Shown here: piece after piece, positions 23,810 through 32,000 of the stretch
Layout of the letters: each line of letters begins with the position of its first letter
How positions within the stretch are numbered: the first letter of the stretch is position 1
Assembly (NCBI GenBank): GCA_016840465.1
Contig: JAEOSH010000002.1
Coordinates: forward strand, 1 to 32,000
Source of the DNA: Candidatus Baldrarchaeum yapensis
GTDB lineage: Archaea; Asgardarchaeota; Baldrarchaeia; Baldrarchaeales; Baldrarchaeaceae
Direction of reading: 5' to 3'
Length of the DNA: 32,000 bases
Position numbers and translations under genes: made by a program
The notes under the pieces: model-generated
The model's database searches: none
What the model was told of the DNA's origin: nothing
What the model saw: the letters and a program-made list of their open reading frames with translations, nothing else

Positions 23810-25188
23810 CTAATGAGCCCCTCCTTGCGTAAAATCCCACGCGCTGCCAGAATCCCGGTAGCCGCTGCAGTTACGAGCCCTCGTGATAGACCTGCACCAT
23901 CACCCGCAACAAAGATCCCCCCGATCGATGTTTCAAGATTTTTATCAACTTCTATCCTATTTGCATAAAACTTTACTTCAGGAGCGTATAGGAGAGTTGA
24001 GGAACTGGCAACACCTGGAATTACAGAATCTAGTTTCTCAAGTCCCTCAAGTATGTCAGTTACTATCCTATGAGGAAGGGCCATTGCTATATCGCCCGGT
24101 GTCACATGCCTTAAAGTTGGTTTTACAATACTTCTCTCTATCCTCGCCCATGTTGATCTCCTACCTCTTTTCAGATCTCCTAACCTCTGTATTAACGGTC
24201 TGCCACCACCTAAGGTTGTTGTCTGCCTCATTATCGAAAAGCCATACGCAGTAGTATCTTCAAGTGGTTCTGTCAGTTCTATTCTCACAAGCAAGGCGAA
24301 ATTTGCATTTTCCGATTTCTCTGCCTGTAGCGTATGCCCATTGACCCCCACAGCGTCCTTTCCATAGACCTCTTGTACAACAAATCCCCTGTAATTAACG
24401 CAAAAAGTGCGCACAAAATCGTCATACGTTTCGGTATAAATATGGAATTTTGGATCAAAAGCTACTTTTATTACGGGTTCCATGACTATTGCGGGAACCT
24501 CCACACGTACCCCCACATCTATAGGCCCAGGTCTCGATGCTATGCCGAGTCTCCTTGCTTGTTCTAGTAACCATCTTGCACCACTCCTTCCGGGTGCTAT
24601 GATCAAGTACTTCGCTTCAAGCACTGTACCATCGTCTAGAACTACCTTCCCCTTATCGAATTTCTCAACTCGATGCTTTAAGAGAAATCTTACGCCCTTA
24701 CGTTCGAGATCGTTTTTAAAATTCTGAATTACTCTGGGAGCCAAATCACTCCCTATATGACGTTGCCTTATTGGAATAAACTTTATTCCCGCAGCGGCTG
24801 CTCTCCTTGACAACTCCTCTATTGCTCCCTGATCCCCACCATAAACGGTATTGGGGGCACCATACTTGACAAAAATACTATCAACTTCATTTACAAGTTC
24901 CCAAGCAACCCTTTCGCTTCCGGTGAGTTCCTCTAAATCTCCACCTACCTGAGGATGCAGATTTAAGAGCCCACTTGATAGTGTGCCAGCACCACCAACA
25001 CCACAAATAATCTTGCACGGGTTACACTTCTTGCAAAAGGATACGTTTAATGCGGGGCATATCCTCTCCTTAACATCGGGTCCCCAATCTATTACGAGAA
25101 TCTTCATGTCAGATTTCGAGGATAACTCGTTTGCCGCGAAGAGCCCAGCAGGTCCTGCTCCCACAATTATCACATCATAAAATTTCAT
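23806..25188 (-). CDS. FAD/NAD(P)-dependent oxidoreductase (COG2509-like)
   Basis: Rossmann motif DVIIVGAGPAGLFAA, Cys cluster CPA...CKKCNPC, GVGGAGTLSSG, APGRSG, RTFC, YAPEVKFY, VAGDGAG. Confidence 0.88.
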   Translation of the reverse strand: MKFYDVIIVGAGPAGLFAANELSSKSDMKILVIDWGPDVKERICPALNVSFCKKCNPCKIICGVGGAGTLSSGLLNLHPQVGGDLEELTGSERVAWELVNEVDSIFVKYGAPNTVYGGDQGAIEELSRRAAAAGIKFIPIRQRHIGSDLAPRVIQNFKNDLERKGVRFLLKHRVEKFDKGKVVLDDGTVLEAKYLIIAPGRSGARWLLEQARRLGIASRPGPIDVGVRVEVPAIVMEPVIKVAFDPKFHIYTETYDDFVRTFCVNYRGFVVQEVYGKDAVGVNGHTLQAEKSENANFALLVRIELTEPLEDTTAYGFSIMRQTTTLGGGRPLIQRLGDLKRGRRSTWARIERSIVKPTLRHVTPGDIAMALPHRIVTDILEGLEKLDSVIPGVASSSTLLYAPEVKFYANRIEVDKNLETSIGGIFVAGDGAGLSRGLVTAAATGILAARGILRKEGLIS

Positions 25189-26093
25189 GTATTCACCCCG
25201 TTTTCGAAGACACGACCAATGTATGTTCCATCCAATAAGTATATTTCTATCGTATCAAGTCTGAGGAATTTTTTATCAAAAATCGGGCATAGAAGTCTTT
25301 TTGATTCTTTCTCTTCGATAAAAAGCTTATTTACTATAAAACCACCGCACAATCTGTTAAATGCGGGCAGAACTATAAATTGACGTAAATGTATAGTATC
25401 AATTAATAAGTCGGGATCACATATTCCCTCTTTGGTTTTTCTCGCAACGAATCTTCTTCTATACTCGGCCTCCAAGGATGATTTGACAAATTTTCCTCTC
25501 AGCCAGCATCTTTCTACAAATGAGCGTCCTCCACCCGGCGTTAACATATATAGTGGATGTATGTGCGCAAAGATGAGCAAATCACATGACAATAGTGGAA
25601 TATCCGGCCACGTATGTCCATGAAACACCCCTATAGATTTTCCGCCCTCTAATTTCAGGACAAGACTCTTAACAACCTGGATGCCTAACGGCGATAAAAA
25701 CCTCTCTATAACCCCGTCATGGTTCCCCTTTATTACGATTATAGATAACCCCTTTTCCAGTAATCCCCTCATTAGGCTCATCACTTCGTAAAAAGTCCTT
25801 TTTTGAAACCCTATTTCATGTTTCAAATCCCCGACTATAACCAGAATATCCGGATTTAAATCACTTATTAATTTCTTTAAATCAAACATTAGAAGATTTA
25901 CCGCCTTTTGTGGAATATAGATCCCTTTTGCTCGAAAATCTGCCTCTATACCTATATGCAAATCCGCTATAAACACGTATCTGCGACTCTCAAACTCTAA
26001 TATTAGTGCCGGGTATCCGACGGCAAAGTTTAGATGACTTCTCATGAATTTCACCTTTAGGAGCCCTGCTATGTCCTTTAAGATCTCTGTCAT
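25185..26093 (-). CDS. Calcineurin-like metallophosphoesterase (Lhr-associated type)
   Basis: IADLHIG, VGDLKH, KGNHD, FHGH, AHIHP, LPAFN. Confidence 0.9.
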   Translation of the reverse strand: MTEILKDIAGLLKVKFMRSHLNFAVGYPALILEFESRRYVFIADLHIGIEADFRAKGIYIPQKAVNLLMFDLKKLISDLNPDILVIVGDLKHEIGFQKRTFYEVMSLMRGLLEKGLSIIVIKGNHDGVIERFLSPLGIQVVKSLVLKLEGGKSIGVFHGHTWPDIPLLSCDLLIFAHIHPLYMLTPGGGRSFVERCWLRGKFVKSSLEAEYRRRFVARKTKEGICDPDLLIDTIHLRQFIVLPAFNRLCGGFIVNKLFIEEKESKRLLCPIFDKKFLRLDTIEIYLLDGTYIGRVFENGVNT

Positions 26094-26442: not shown

Positions 26443-29310
26443 ATGAACTCCTTTGACCTCTTAGATCAGCAGATAAAAAACGTTCTTGAAAAATTGAACT
26501 TCAGAAAACCTACAGAAATACAGCAGATTGCCATTCCACTAATCCTAGAGGGTCATAATGTCATAATAATTTCCCCCACAGGAACGGGAAAGACAGAGGC
26601 TGCTCTACTTCCTGTTCTCTCAATGTTATTGCGCTTAAAGAAATCCTCTCATGTGAACGGCATATTAGTTCTTTATATAACGCCTTTGAGAGCACTGAAT
26701 AGAGATCTTCTTCACAGAATTTCACAACTGTGCGATCCCCTCGGAATAAAAATATATGTTAGACATGGCGACACCAGTAGAAAAGAAAGAACGCAACAAA
26801 TAAGAGATCCGCCGGATATTTTAATAACAACTCCTGAAACGCTCCAGGCAATACTTCCAGGTCTATATTTTAGATATTTCCTGAGAAACGTACGATGGGT
26901 AATTATAGACGAAATACACGAATTGGCCGAGGATAAGCGAGGATCTCAGCTCTCTCTTGCACTTGAAAGATTACAATTACTAACTTCACATGACTTCCAA
27001 AGGATCGGACTCTCGGCAACCATCGGAAACCCTGAGGAAATAGGAAAATTTTTGGTCGGAGTTAGCAGGCCCTTTAAGGTAGCAGTATCGTCGACGGGCA
27101 GACGATACCATATAGTCGTTGATGCTCCGCAACCATCATCAGAAGATTCGGAAATTGCCGAACACTTATATGTTTCGCCTGAAGCCGTTGCAAGAATCAG
27201 GAGAATAATTGAATTGATGCGGTCATCGACCTCCTGTATAACATTTGTAAACACACGTGAAATGGCCGAAATTCTGACATCACGCATAAAGGCCTTAGAA
27301 GGCAAATTTGAAGTGGGAATTCATCATAGTTCTCTGGATAAAGAAGTAAGGGTTGATGCAGAACATCAATTTAAGGATAAAAAAATCAAAATGCTCGTAA
27401 GTACAAGCTCGCTTGAAATGGGAATAGATATCGGGCATGTAGATCTTGTGATACAATATATGTCTCCAAGGCAAGTTACCAGACTTATCCAGCGCGTAGG
27501 CAGAAGTCTGCATAAGGAGGGGATGCCAGCACGAGGAGTAATAATTACTGCCATTGAGAACTTAGATGACATTTTGGAGGCCGCAGTAATAGCAAAGCTT
27601 GCAATAATGGGGAAAATAGAGCCTATAAAAATACCCGAGAAACCCTTAGATGTTCTCGCCCATCAGATAGTCGGCTTTCTATTGGACTTTAAGTCCATGG
27701 ACCTGCAGAATCTGTATAATGCCATAATTAAGGCGTATCCCTATAGAAACTTGTCAAAGGAGGAATTTCTATCGGTAATGAGGTTCTTAGAAGGCTTAGG
27801 ACTTGTAAAGATAAGAGGTTCACAAGTGCAAAGAACAAGAAGAACGTGGCAATATTATTACGAAAATTTATCAATGATTCCAGATACTCGAAAGTATGAT
27901 GTCATAGATACGACTTCAGGGAGAAAAATCGGCACACTTGATGAAGAATTTGTAGCTGAATACGGAATACCTGGAAGATCAATAATAATGAGGGGATCTT
28001 CCTGGAAAATAGAGGATATTTCCGAGAATTGCGTTTATGTATGCCCAATTAAAGATATTTCCGCAGCCGTACCCTCATGGATAGGTGAAGAAATACCAGT
28101 GCCATTTGATGTTGCTGTGCGAGTTGGCGCGCTTAGAAGACTTCTCGCGGACGCGAAGAACCCTATGGACGCAAAAAAGTTATTAAGGTCACTGATGCTA
28201 TCGGAGAAAACTGCTGACCTTGTTATTGAAAAAATTAATAATATTCGTAAAGCAGAACTGCCGATACCATCGGAGAAGCTAATAGTCATAGAATGTCCCA
28301 CCAATTACGGGGATGAGAATGCTTATGTAATAGTAATTCATTCGTGCTTTGGCTCACTCGTAAATGAAGCCCTAGGAAGAATTTTAGCGGCACTTCTAAG
28401 CGTGCGTTATAACACTTCCATAATGCTGAGCACAGACCCCTACAGAGTAGTTTTGAAAAGTACGAGAAAAATAAATCCTCATCACGTTGCCGAGATGTTG
28501 CAAGAATTAAAGCCCGATCACGTACCTCATCTTATAAAAATCTCAGTTAAAAACTCAGGTATGCTTATTTGGAGGTTATTGCACGTAGCTAGAAGGTTCG
28601 GCGCGATTTCGCGTAATGCTGAAATAACTCCAGGAGTTTACGAAAAATTGCCTGAAATTTATAGCGGCACTCCCGTATATGAAGAGGCCCTCCGAGAAGT
28701 AACTTCCCAAAAACTTGATGTTACCAATTTATGCAAAATATTACATTTTCTTCGTGACGGAAAGATTGGGATTGAAGTTATTACGCCTCAAGAGCCTTCT
28801 TTCTTCGCAAAACTCGCACTAGAACCCTTATTTCTCCGTGATTACGTAAGTACAGGTAAGCCTATCGCTGAAATTATAGAGTACGTCAAAAAACGTCTTT
28901 TGAATGAACGATTAAAAGTTTTATGTATAAATTGCCTAAAATGGGAAATAGAGACTTCGGTCTCTGCAATTCCGGAGAATATGAAATGCCCGGTGTGTGG
29001 CTCAGTACTATTAGCGATGACTTCTGTCTACGATGACGAGACGAGAAGAGTATTGATGAAGGTAAAAAGAGGAGAAGAGCTTAGCGATAAGGAATTAAAG
29101 ACTTTTAGGAGTGCCCAGTTGTCAGCAAGTTTATTCGCAGAGTATGGAAAACGCGCAGCAATTGTCATGGCAGGACGTGGAATAGGTCCAAAAACCGCGG
29201 CCCATATCCTAAGTATGTGCCACAATTGCGATATAGACGAACTTATTAAAGAAGTAATTAATGCTGAACGCACATTTTTAAGAACTCGAAGATTTTGGAG
29301 CAACGATTAA
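26443..29310 (+). CDS. lhr: Lhr-family SF2 helicase with C-terminal Cys-rich region
   Basis: SPTGTGKTEAA, ITPLRALNRD, TTPETL, DEIHE, LSAT, HHSSL, STSSLEMGIDIG, QRVGRS, LDVLAHQI, and C-terminal CINC...CPVC. Confidence 0.95.
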   Translation: MNSFDLLDQQIKNVLEKLNFRKPTEIQQIAIPLILEGHNVIIISPTGTGKTEAALLPVLSMLLRLKKSSHVNGILVLYITPLRALNRDLLHRISQLCDPLGIKIYVRHGDTSRKERTQQIRDPPDILITTPETLQAILPGLYFRYFLRNVRWVIIDEIHELAEDKRGSQLSLALERLQLLTSHDFQRIGLSATIGNPEEIGKFLVGVSRPFKVAVSSTGRRYHIVVDAPQPSSEDSEIAEHLYVSPEAVARIRRIIELMRSSTSCITFVNTREMAEILTSRIKALEGKFEVGIHHSSLDKEVRVDAEHQFKDKKIKMLVSTSSLEMGIDIGHVDLVIQYMSPRQVTRLIQRVGRSLHKEGMPARGVIITAIENLDDILEAAVIAKLAIMGKIEPIKIPEKPLDVLAHQIVGFLLDFKSMDLQNLYNAIIKAYPYRNLSKEEFLSVMRFLEGLGLVKIRGSQVQRTRRTWQYYYENLSMIPDTRKYDVIDTTSGRKIGTLDEEFVAEYGIPGRSIIMRGSSWKIEDISENCVYVCPIKDISAAVPSWIGEEIPVPFDVAVRVGALRRLLADAKNPMDAKKLLRSLMLSEKTADLVIEKINNIRKAELPIPSEKLIVIECPTNYGDENAYVIVIHSCFGSLVNEALGRILAALLSVRYNTSIMLSTDPYRVVLKSTRKINPHHVAEMLQELKPDHVPHLIKISVKNSGMLIWRLLHVARRFGAISRNAEITPGVYEKLPEIYSGTPVYEEALREVTSQKLDVTNLCKILHFLRDGKIGIEVITPQEPSFFAKLALEPLFLRDYVSTGKPIAEIIEYVKKRLLNERLKVLCINCLKWEIETSVSAIPENMKCPVCGSVLLAMTSVYDDETRRVLMKVKRGEELSDKELKTFRSAQLSASLFAEYGKRAAIVMAGRGIGPKTAAHILSMCHNCDIDELIKEVINAERTFLRTRRFWSND

Positions 29311-32000
29311 ATCTGCAAGTTTAAGGACCTCATCTATGGCCTCTCTATGCTCAGGTGTGAGCATCGATGAAACTGCGGGTTTAACTTTGCGAATTTTTTC
29401 ATACGATTCTTTTATCGATATTTCACTCACAAGCCGGCCACCGCACATGCATCTCTGTGTTAAAGTTGGGCGAGAGTAGCTTCGGCCGCATTTTTCACAA
29501 GAATATTTTACTGAAATGAGTTCCCTCATACCGCTCAAAATTGCCCTTAAAATTGCGTTATAAATGGCCTCCTCACTTATTTGGCTGAAGCACTTTGGAC
29601 AGAAGCGACCTTTAAGCTTCAAGATATCCAACGTTGTATTGCACCTCTCACATACGACTTGAATATTGTCATCAAATATCATTTCCATCGAAGATCTTAC
29701 TGACATAACACCACTATTACCATTAGTCTCGAGGAAACTCTGCAGTGTGACACCTACATTAACATTGAGCAGTTCCTTCTTGGAAATTCCTAACGGTTTA
29801 AAGAGCCGTTCAGCAGGTTGAAGCAATTGCTTTTCCAAATAATATTCATCATCAATTTCCAAGCCATTTTCCATGACATATTCTGGATCTTCTGCCCGCT
29901 CAGCTATCGACCCTTTACCTTTTACTATTACAAATGCTATGCGTTCACCGACGCTAGGCGCCATCTTACCCTGTCTCTTACGCAGTTTTTCCGCTAAAAC
30001 GACATGTGGTTGTTTTGCCTTATATTCTTTAGGCAGCTTCGAAAGAGATCTTGTTAATATAAGTTTTTCCAGCGGTATCTTGCCCTCCTTTAAGTCTTTA
30101 ACTACTGTTCTGAAATAGTTAACAGCCTTTTCGACGTTATTCTCTCTGAGAAGAATGTCAAGTATCGTTTCCATAACTTCACTAACAAGATCACACCATT
30201 CTCTCCTTACAGTCTCTATACCCTTCATGTCAATTACGTCCTCATGCCACTTACCATCATCTCCTCTTGTAACCCTTAAGCCGGCATACCGCTTCTTACT
30301 CAATATTAGGAACGATTTGTAGATTTTTTCGAACTCTAACAGAAGCGGCTCAGGCAACAATCTGGATATTTCGATCGATATTTTTCTTCCTATTTCCTCA
30401 GCTTCGTCGAAATTCCTCGTCTTGATCCTCACCATAATGCTATCAGTATCTCCATATATCACCTCATATCCATAGGTCTCTTCGACTTTCTGCTTCGTAA
30501 ACTCAATGGTTTGTCTGCCAAAACCAGTAATCGCATTTGCAACATCCAAGGAATATATACGGGCCTTTAAATACCCCGTATAACCGTAAAAGCTGTTCAT
30601 CATTATTTTTATCGCAAGTTGCCGAGCATCGAGTTGCCGATATCTTTCAGGATCCTTCTCCTCCTTCATCATTTTCTTAACCTTAACACGAAACTCCATC
30701 AACTCCCTAAGTATTTCGGGCATTAAACCTTCTCTTACCTCCTTAGATACAAACTTTGCCCCTGTTGGTGCAGTTATATGCGATACTTCACTATCTCCAT
30801 CTTCTAGTAGCAACGTGGTAAAACAAATATTGTAAGCGATAATTATCGACGGATACAGACTTCTGAAGTCTAAAACAAGAATTTTATCATCGCCAGAATA
30901 TATTCCAACCTTTGGTTCAAGTACTGTTGCACCCTTTAGTTCCTTTTTCTCTCGCTCTTTCCTCCGTCTCTCGATCTCCTGATCATCGGGTTTGCACGGA
31001 AGTATTATATCTCTTTTCTTTCCGTAACGAAGAAGTAAACTTTCCACCTTTGCTGATTGCCCGCCATAAATGACATCTTGAGGTAATAATCCGCACACGC
31101 GCGACAATTCCAAATATTTATCAAGTAATCGCTTCTCTAAGAGTATCTTCAGGGGAAGTATAGCATCCTTCCGTGCGTATTCTATTAACTTCTTTATCTC
31201 GTTTGAGTTCCCGTTCCAAAGCTTGGGAATATCCTTATAATCCAACTCGACCTTCTTCTCATTAATTAGCTTCTCGGCAACGTGATCAAGCGTATAGCGC
31301 TTCAAATGGAACTCCGATTTTACAAGTTCCTGAACATCCGCAACTATCCTTCCAGGAATTAAAATTCTCGTTTCCCTTTCACCTTTCTTCAACTGAACTC
31401 CTTTATCCAAAACTCGACCCATCTTTGATGGTATATTATACTCTTTTAACCTCCTCAGCAAATACGGTAGGTCAAAATTCAAAATGTTATACCCTGTTAT
31501 GAGATCCGGATCGTATGCATCAATGATTTCAAGAAACCTCCTTAACATCTCCTCCTCTCCATTAAAACACTCTATGTTGTCTATCTTCGCATTCACTGGC
31601 CTTGATACCAGTACTAGTGTATCCTTCCCATCAAATGAGGGGTAGAAGGCTATGCTTATGATTATTATCGGGTCTTTTGACGGATCCGGTAATAACTTAT
31701 CGTTCGACGGTAAACACTCTATGTCGAAGCTCATCATCTTGAGTTCAACCTTTGGCGCTACCTCATCCTCGACAACACGAACTTCATGTGCTTTCATCTC
31801 CATACTTGTCTTTCCTAGTGAAGTTTTTATGACCTCACCTTTCACTCTGAGCAAAGAATACCCGTAAATTCCATTATCTATCATATACCTGTATCTAAAC
31901 GGTATATCCGCCTCAAAAACCTCAATAACTCCTTCCATTTTCCTAACTTTATCCCTAATCTCCTTAACTTGAGTCGGAACCCTAACCTCGACCCTTAAAA
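29278..32000 (-). CDS. polB: Family B DNA polymerase, Pol delta-like core with Cys-rich C-terminal domain (N-terminus beyond the window edge)
   Basis: Exo I SFDIEC, Exo II GYNILNFDLPY, Exo III YARKDA, LDFRSLYPSII, KIMMNSFYGY, YGDTDS, KKRYAG, KGIETVRR. The frame stays open from 31938 to the edge (LRVEVRVPTQVKEIRDKVRK). Confidence 0.97.
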   Translation of the reverse strand, partial: LRVEVRVPTQVKEIRDKVRKMEGVIEVFEADIPFRYRYMIDNGIYGYSLLRVKGEVIKTSLGKTSMEMKAHEVRVVEDEVAPKVELKMMSFDIECLPSNDKLLPDPSKDPIIIISIAFYPSFDGKDTLVLVSRPVNAKIDNIECFNGEEEMLRRFLEIIDAYDPDLITGYNILNFDLPYLLRRLKEYNIPSKMGRVLDKGVQLKKGERETRILIPGRIVADVQELVKSEFHLKRYTLDHVAEKLINEKKVELDYKDIPKLWNGNSNEIKKLIEYARKDAILPLKILLEKRLLDKYLELSRVCGLLPQDVIYGGQSAKVESLLLRYGKKRDIILPCKPDDQEIERRRKEREKKELKGATVLEPKVGIYSGDDKILVLDFRSLYPSIIIAYNICFTTLLLEDGDSEVSHITAPTGAKFVSKEVREGLMPEILRELMEFRVKVKKMMKEEKDPERYRQLDARQLAIKIMMNSFYGYTGYLKARIYSLDVANAITGFGRQTIEFTKQKVEETYGYEVIYGDTDSIMVRIKTRNFDEAEEIGRKISIEISRLLPEPLLLEFEKIYKSFLILSKKRYAGLRVTRGDDGKWHEDVIDMKGIETVRREWCDLVSEVMETILDILLRENNVEKAVNYFRTVVKDLKEGKIPLEKLILTRSLSKLPKEYKAKQPHVVLAEKLRKRQGKMAPSVGERIAFVIVKGKGSIAERAEDPEYVMENGLEIDDEYYLEKQLLQPAERLFKPLGISKKELLNVNVGVTLQSFLETNGNSGVMSVRSSMEMIFDDNIQVVCERCNTTLDILKLKGRFCPKCFSQISEEAIYNAILRAILSGMRELISVKYSCEKCGRSYSRPTLTQRCMCGGRLVSEISIKESYEKIRKVKPAVSSMLTPEHREAIDEVLKLADLIVAPKSSSS

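Follow-up and report, generated by a model that had tools for sequence, protein, structure and literature searches.

The first 32,000 nucleotides of contig JAEOSH010000002.1 of Candidatus Baldrarchaeum yapensis, the whole stretch analysed here and referred to as the window, carry on the minus strand most of the gene for a B-family DNA polymerase (PolB). This enzyme is the Baldrarchaeial PolB-DP2CTD fusion, a member of PolB group B6 that is also named 'PolB3-DP2CTD' or 'B6-aenigma2'. In eukaryotes the replicases are B-family polymerases whose Cys-rich tail binds a B subunit that is dead as a nuclease; PolD does this work in most archaea. We judge it likely, with a probability of about 0.8, that the polymerase has replaced DP2 and serves as the catalytic component of a eukaryote-like Baldrarchaeial replicase made of two subunits. 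The protein is a mosaic: its resemblance to eukaryotic Pol delta is limited to the catalytic core, the N-terminal domain resembles that of B3, and the tail is like those of DP2, Pol epsilon and Pol alpha. The finding is confirmed as real and correctly read, and it was already known: the enzyme was described in 2020 (PMC7544198) and analysed and tested in 2025 (PMC12680538), in keeping with the caution of an earlier reading of this DNA, made from the sequence only, that the family was perhaps not new.

The open reading frame (ORF) contains, letter for letter, 13 of the 13 motifs that the sequence-only reading had quoted as parts of one PolB. It stops at 29278 and its 5' end lies outside the window; the complete gene occupies positions 29278-32256 (-) of the contig (C67), with an ATG start at 32256, about 256 bp past the window, and encodes 992 residues, or 997 and 1007 residues if the alternative GTG starts at 32271 and 32301 are used. 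The interval originally given for the feature, 29728-32000, thus has the end of the core right (29728, residue 843) and the end of the gene wrong, as the ORF runs on to the stop at 29278. Pfam domains DNA_pol_B (E 3e-126) and DNA_pol_B_exo1 (E 9e-41) are both present. The closest homologues are from named Baldrarchaeia (56-60% identity), followed by Aenigmatarchaeota (40-48%) and then, for the core region, eukaryotic Pol delta (about 41%). At 90% clustering the top homologue (P0003) falls together with RLJ05308 and OYT28452, the two named reference members of B6-aenigma2 (Kazlauskas et al. 2020, PMC7544198), a group first assigned to Aenigmarchaeota (PMC7544198) and later recognised as mis-binned Baldrarchaeia contigs (PMC12680538).

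Among 400 genomes of the phylum, with two candidates scored per genome, the PolB-DP2CTD gene was found in all five of its order and in none of the other 395. All five are metagenome-assembled genomes (MAGs), and that of Ca. B. yapensis, 96% complete, is the sole one of its family. The upstream neighbourhood (a ribophorin-like gene, a tRNA, a phosphoesterase and the next genes) is common to two order-mates of another family, and the GC content at third codon positions, 42.1%, is typical of the contig (40.0 ± 3.2%), so the gene is an old chromosomal resident.

That the core is more like Pol delta than like PolB1 or PolB3, as the sequence-only reading had proposed from its motifs, is supported, and the likeness greatly exceeds what chance would produce. 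NCBIfam has no delta-specific model, and Pol delta was compared with B3 by PDB searches and trees. In the PDB sequence search human Pol delta scored 440 bits and yeast Pol delta 402-407, ahead of Thermococcales B3 (at most 347), Pol alpha (at most 287) and Pol zeta (257). Foldseek searches with the predicted PolB model (mean predicted local distance difference test score, pLDDT, 71.5) returned Pol delta structures as the top five matches (E 1e-66 to 4e-63), in front of B3 at 1e-58. Over 616 core columns the mean identity was 50.5% to Aenigmatarchaeota-type B6, 39.5% to Pol delta, 33.2% to Asgard B3, 31.1% to Pol alpha, 29.9% to viral enzymes and 27.2% to B1 and other archaeal PolBs. The polymerase domain keeps its catalytic aspartates. 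The Delta-like clade has been characterised by Cys residues conserved in the ExoI, ExoIII and motif A regions (Kazlauskas 2020, PMC7544198); here ExoI has such a residue (C181), another follows motif A (C478) and ExoIII (YARKDA) has none, and the canonical B3 of the genome also has the ExoI Cys.

Phylogenetic analysis places the enzyme in a broad clade with the eukaryotic polymerases and not within Pol delta. The main tree comprised 50 sequences and 627 core columns and was inferred in IQ-TREE under LG+C20+F+G4 with posterior mean site frequencies (PMSF); its Pol alpha rows were drawn from metagenomes via a sequence motif and identified by motif and length rather than annotation, and the unnamed rows labelled 'VirP' may be viral or divergent eukaryotic. 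Baldrarchaeial PolBs, with the P0003 cluster, formed a clade (100/99) and grouped with Aenigmatarchaeota-type B6 (99/99); B6, Pol alpha, Pol delta and viral PolBs together split from B1/B3 (98/95), and Pol delta grouped with viral PolBs (100/100). The branch uniting B6 with delta and viral enzymes against alpha is weak in this best tree (85/64), so the order of B6 relative to Pol alpha is only weakly supported. A tree of 79 sequences gave the same pattern. In approximately unbiased (AU) tests a grouping of the Baldrarchaeial sequences with B3 was rejected (p=0.0075), as was one of Baldrarchaeial sequences and Pol delta as a single clade (p=0.0001) and one of B6 with delta that excluded viral and alpha sequences (p=0.0003), viral PolBs being nearer to delta. 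The phylogeny that the sequence-only reading had called for therefore puts the enzyme outside PolB3, and the enzyme is not nested among viral PolBs. Since the tests reject an exclusive grouping with delta, 'delta-like' says that the enzyme is similar to delta and belongs to the broad clade, and does not mean that the two are orthologues: the closest relatives of the polymerase are archaeal B6 enzymes, and it is related to the ancestor of eukaryotic alpha, delta and zeta rather than orthologous to Pol delta. Published phylogenies likewise set B6 and the eukaryotic enzymes apart from B1/B3 (PMC7544198, PMC12680538). Unnamed metagenomic PolBs of 1440-1640 residues (P0254-P0264) are 38-60% identical to Naegleria Pol delta, and many of them have a C4 tail of the Pol delta type; the three placed in the trees branch just outside eukaryotic Pol delta, and the set may be viral or divergent eukaryotic.

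For the N-terminal domain the match to Thermococcales B3 has an E of 4e-15 (about 1e-14 for the alignment with KOD and Deep Vent), and that to Pol delta only 0.03. All 12 of the KOD residues that form the uracil/hypoxanthine pocket (PMC8596578) are identical in the B. yapensis enzyme, nine of them in the window and three, Y8, P39 and Y40, beyond it, and the archaeal uracil-sensing pocket is intact in sequence. Other B6 sequences keep the pocket residues apart from a Leu at the Pro115 position. Uracil recognition has been described as archaeal and missing from eukaryotic enzymes, and the retained pocket offers a way to date the loss of uracil read-ahead by the eukaryotic polymerases. Several canonical Asgard PolB3s (L360, L361, L362, L366) lack pocket residues that B6 and Baldrarchaeial B3 retain.

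The tail is of another kind again. Its eight Cys residues, arranged as two Cys4 motifs, are invariant in 7/7 Baldrarchaeial sequences; the first motif, CysA, was not seen in the Aenigmatarchaeota B6 sequences examined. A profile search with the tail matched the DP2 C-terminus (E 2e-10) and Pol epsilon's C-terminal domain (CTD; E 0.0014), and no Pol delta chain was matched to E 10. Neither the Pfam scan of PolB nor precomputed domains contained zf-C4pol (PF14260); in the precomputed domains eukaryotic delta proteins do have PF14260. The tail model (pLDDT mostly 70-90 over model residues 29-152) had its best Foldseek matches in the Pol epsilon CTD (5vbn), PolD (8ppt) and the Pol alpha CTD; a VIA-align search gave the Pol epsilon CTD a Z of 7.9, level with unrelated helical bundles. 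The two-motif tail aligns with the Pol epsilon CTD across both motifs. Among 1.84 billion representative sequences the full-length tail matches were two Baldrarchaeial clusters only; most other matches cover the second half, and the long ones that were checked are DP2. The tail derives in part from DP2 of PolD, and its Cys4 sites are predicted to bind zinc rather than an Fe-S cluster.

DP2 itself was not found. Pfam models for its N-terminal and catalytic regions had no match in 5/5 genomes of the order, whereas 24/26 other genomes of the phylum were positive, and tblastn with full DP2 gave no match below E 0.3. DP1 is retained as a single gene that adjoins cdc6. In P. abyssi N450 is a metal ligand and H451 the essential catalytic His (10.1101/2023.08.09.552591); the aligned GNH motif reads GDS in the B. 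yapensis protein and GEN, GET and GDA in the copies of three order-mates, while the His is kept in 24/24 other Asgard copies. Because this His is replaced, Baldrarchaeial DP1 is predicted to be nuclease-dead, as are eukaryotic B subunits. The gene (L007:2602-3984, contig C51 of genome G000) is convergent with cdc6/orc1. In its product the counterparts of N450 and H451 are both replaced, and behind the second metal motif a loop of about 11 residues has been deleted; all three order-mate copies show comparable changes.

A model of DP1 in complex with the tail scored 0.87, against 0.00 for the best of three controls, where the mark for such scores was reached by 58/80 solved pairs and 2/110 mismatched pairs. 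Contact agreement between runs was at least 74%, partner pLDDT was at least 72, and the contact was centred on the CysB loop (residues 927-935). As similar complexes have already been solved, the score may reflect memory and show likeness rather than binding. Yeast two-hybrid assays of proteins from Baldrarchaeia have shown that DP1 binds PolB-DP2CTD and not the other PolBs (Feng 2025, PMC12680538).

We propose that the polymerase took the place of DP2 and would dock on DP1 through the DP2-derived CysB finger region, with zinc held at both Cys4 sites. Proofreading would have shifted to the polymerase's own exonuclease, leaving DP1 as a structural B subunit, and the PolB-DP1 complex would act on PCNA, for which the genome encodes a gene, as the main chromosomal replicase, with canonical B1 and B3 in supporting roles. 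Activity of the PolB, zinc occupancy, use of PCNA and the main-replicase role are what we infer.

Several points weigh against this proposal. PolB1 and PolB3 genes that look intact are present in the genome too, and one or the other could serve as the main replicase, as in PolD-less Crenarchaeota. The first position of the PIP-like motif is G in this copy and Q in other Baldrarchaeial copies. DP2 is 'not found' rather than proven absent, since the genomes are MAGs, and the literature searched held no enzyme assay of a Baldrarchaeial PolB. The trees were built without Pol zeta, Pol epsilon, B4 and non-Asgard B3, their B3 rows being Asgard sequences only, and a grouping of all B6 with B3 survives the AU test (p=0.14).

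An unlikely though by no means negligible alternative accepts the family and the DP1 complex and makes the enzyme an accessory, repair or lagging-strand polymerase, with PolB1 or PolB3 doing the bulk of replication. The presence of three PolBs in the genome, the occurrence of canonical B3 in 3/4 order-mates at 70% identity (the B. yapensis copy is on C56), the degenerate PIP motif of this copy and the distance of its gene from cdc6 and DP1, which are on C51, would all suit a secondary role. Against it, PolB-DP2CTD occurs exactly where DP2 is missing, DP1 has been kept and, of the three PolBs, binds this one only in the published assay (PMC12680538), and Aenigmatarchaeota show the same replacement of DP2 (PMC7544198).

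Much less probable is that B6 is a derived offshoot of archaeal PolB3 which resembles Pol delta through slow evolution or convergence and not through a closer common ancestry with the eukaryotic enzymes. That B6 and B3 can share one side of a branch in the surviving AU topology, that B6 retains the B3-type N-terminal pocket and that its branches are short compared with those of alpha and viral enzymes are consistent with such an origin, but B6 and the eukaryotic enzymes stand apart from B1/B3 in the best tree, the tail aligns with the Pol epsilon CTD over both motifs, and both published phylogenies disagree with it (PMC7544198, PMC12680538). Finally, transfer of a eukaryotic or viral Pol delta gene (a true orthologue or a proviral gene), or a mis-binned contig, is hardly credible despite the best PDB match being Pol delta and a tRNA gene lying about 190 bp upstream of the PolB start, as both delta groupings fail the AU test, the N-terminal domain fits Thermococcales B3 far better than Pol delta, the tail matches DP2 and not Pol delta, the best viral match is just 32%, the 105-kb contig bears archaeal ribosomal operons, and the locus is common to order-mates. 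A proviral origin, which the upstream tRNA had raised, was rejected on this shared locus and on the absence of a duplicated tRNA end flanking the gene.

Table 1. Features of the PolB-DP2CTD gene, in window coordinates, and loci of the second group of two-motif enzymes (last row, coordinates within each locus).
Feature	Position	Strand	Details and basis
PolB gene, residues 86-992 of 992	29278..32000	-	First 85 codons past the window; Pfam domains
Uracil/hypoxanthine read-ahead pocket, part in window	31876..31977	-	P94, V97, R101, E115, D117, I118, P119, F120, R123; KOD/Deep Vent alignment
3'-5' proofreading exonuclease motifs	31162..31728	-	ExoI FDIEC 31714-31728; ExoII 31459-31494; ExoIII YARKDA 31162-31179; acidic residues intact
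Polymerase domain	29875..30870	-	Motif A 30847-30870; motif B 30583-30609; motif C YGDTDS 30439-30456; KKRYAG 30280-30297; thumb motifs to 29875
PIP-box-like motif GVTLQSFL, just after thumb	29731..29754	-	Alignments; putative binding
Whole C-terminal domain, about 150 residues	29278..29730	-	Two Cys4 motifs and three helices, Pol epsilon/alpha/DP2-type; model and Foldseek
CysA, first Cys4 motif	29590..29652	-	C869, C872, C886, C889; invariant in 7/7 Baldrarchaeial sequences
CysB, second Cys4 motif	29443..29499	-	C920, C923, C936, C938; homologous to PolD DP2 C-terminal zinc finger; centre of predicted DP1 contact
Second-group genes	L378:10001-13063, L380:4369-7431, L379:39-3083, L384:10001-13063 (GCA_964412355.1)		

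Within the window an Lhr-type helicase gene (26443-29310, +) is convergent with the PolB gene, with an overlap of 33 bp, and a metallophosphoesterase gene (SbcD-related/PdeM-like, 25185-26093, -) is divergent from the helicase gene; neither is kept beside the polymerase in order-mates. The tRNA upstream of the PolB start lies just past the window on the minus strand (contig 32444-32531, L001:8444-8531). It is most like the tRNA-Gln(CTG) on C32 and is best read as tRNA-Gln(TTG) with an intron of 11-12 nt, which ARAGORN wrongly calls Gly or Stop. The B. yapensis PolB has no intein, and two order-mate copies carry a LAGLIDADG intein near motif A, at about residue 461-466 (G002 C17:5181-9209 and G004 C240; L397, L398; P0007, P0008). 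Another Baldrarchaeial copy (L076, JAGGSW010000163.1) sits in a MAG labelled Odinarchaeota at NCBI, a label that is misleading because this MAG is the order-mate G001. A few genes downstream of polB1, past a histone deacetylase-family gene, genes for an E1-like (ThiF/MoeB) protein and an E2-like ubiquitin-conjugating protein were recognised by eye (L009:8175-9673, G000 C66).

Both tail Cys motifs also occur in four further enzymes of 1014-1020 residues (P0155, P0158, P0493 and P0513), of which P0155 is 39% identical to the B. yapensis PolB; among 134 homologues with tails counted, this group and the Baldrarchaeial sequences alone had both. In the tree this group is the sister of the Baldrarchaeial clade, a placement that is moderately supported (84/85). 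Its genes lie on chromosomal DNA of 59-61% GC, with thrS, topoisomerase VI B, ftsZ and ribosomal genes as neighbours, and none was found in the other Asgard genomes among the 400 of the phylum searched. The gene order ftsZ-secE-spt5-L11 is uninformative on taxonomy because it is common to the Baldrarchaeum contig. The host is probably a non-Asgard archaeon, and Kazlauskas 2020 (PMC7544198) may have included the group in its nine metagenomic B6-aenigma2 sequences. We tentatively suggest, at somewhat less than even odds, that the two-motif PolB-DP2CTD fusion extends beyond Baldrarchaeia to an archaeal lineage of about 60% GC outside the 400 Asgard genomes. If its host is non-Asgard and the group unreported, the replicase either predates Baldrarchaeia or came by transfer, and its proposed route into eukaryotes would change. 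In that case the enzyme would be a mosaic intermediate that combines an archaeal uracil sensor, a delta-like core, an epsilon/alpha-like tail and a dead DP1.

The PolB bears on eukaryote origins because it is the closest prokaryotic model of a switch from a PolD to a PolB replicase. Three of the observations made here were not found in the main texts of PMC7544198 and PMC12680538: the loss of the catalytic His in 4/4 Baldrarchaeales DP1s, the intact 12/12 uracil pocket and the sister two-motif enzyme. These are refinements. The order-wide loss of the DP1 His completes the parallel with eukaryotic B subunits, and the second host lineage could matter more if non-Asgard, as it could shift the origin of the fusion.

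Compared with known systems, the polymerase does not differ in kind from the 'Pol delta-like complex' of Baldrarchaeial PolB3 (PolB-DP2CTD) and DP1 (Feng et al. 2025, PMC12680538): it is from the same lineage and has the full two-motif tail, DP2 is missing and DP1 kept, three PolBs are present, and neither analysis fixes how it branches relative to Pol alpha and delta. The main text of that paper makes no mention of DP1 inactivation, the uracil pocket or the B. yapensis genome, its supplements being outside the search. The B. yapensis copy, from the type family, is about 57% identical to Baldrarchaeial copies of the other family, two of which bear the intein, and the type genome thus offers biochemists a copy free of inteins. 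In the Delta-like clade (PMC7544198), B6-aenigma2 likewise has a tail with two Cys motifs, and this tail clusters with those of DP2, Pol epsilon and Pol alpha. The sister group, Aenigmatarchaeota B6-aenigma1 with its inactive DP1, is 42-48% identical and shares the CysB finger, the uracil pocket and the loss of DP2, but has one Cys4 motif and a tail shorter by about 90 residues. With Pol delta (POLD1/Pol3 and POLD2/Pol31), the best match to the core at about 40%, the enzyme shares the proofreading exonuclease motifs and, by prediction, a Cys domain at the C-terminus to which a nuclease-dead homologue of DP1 binds; it differs in having no zf-C4pol, a three-helix tail of the epsilon/alpha/DP2 type, predicted zinc rather than Fe-S, and an archaeal uracil-sensing N-terminus that is shorter by about 100 residues. 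With archaeal PolB3 of the Thermococcales type (KOD, Tgo, Pfu) it shares the full uracil/hypoxanthine pocket and a PIP motif directly after the thumb, whereas its core similarity is lower (33% to Asgard B3), it falls in a separate clade, and B3 is without the C-terminal Cys domain.

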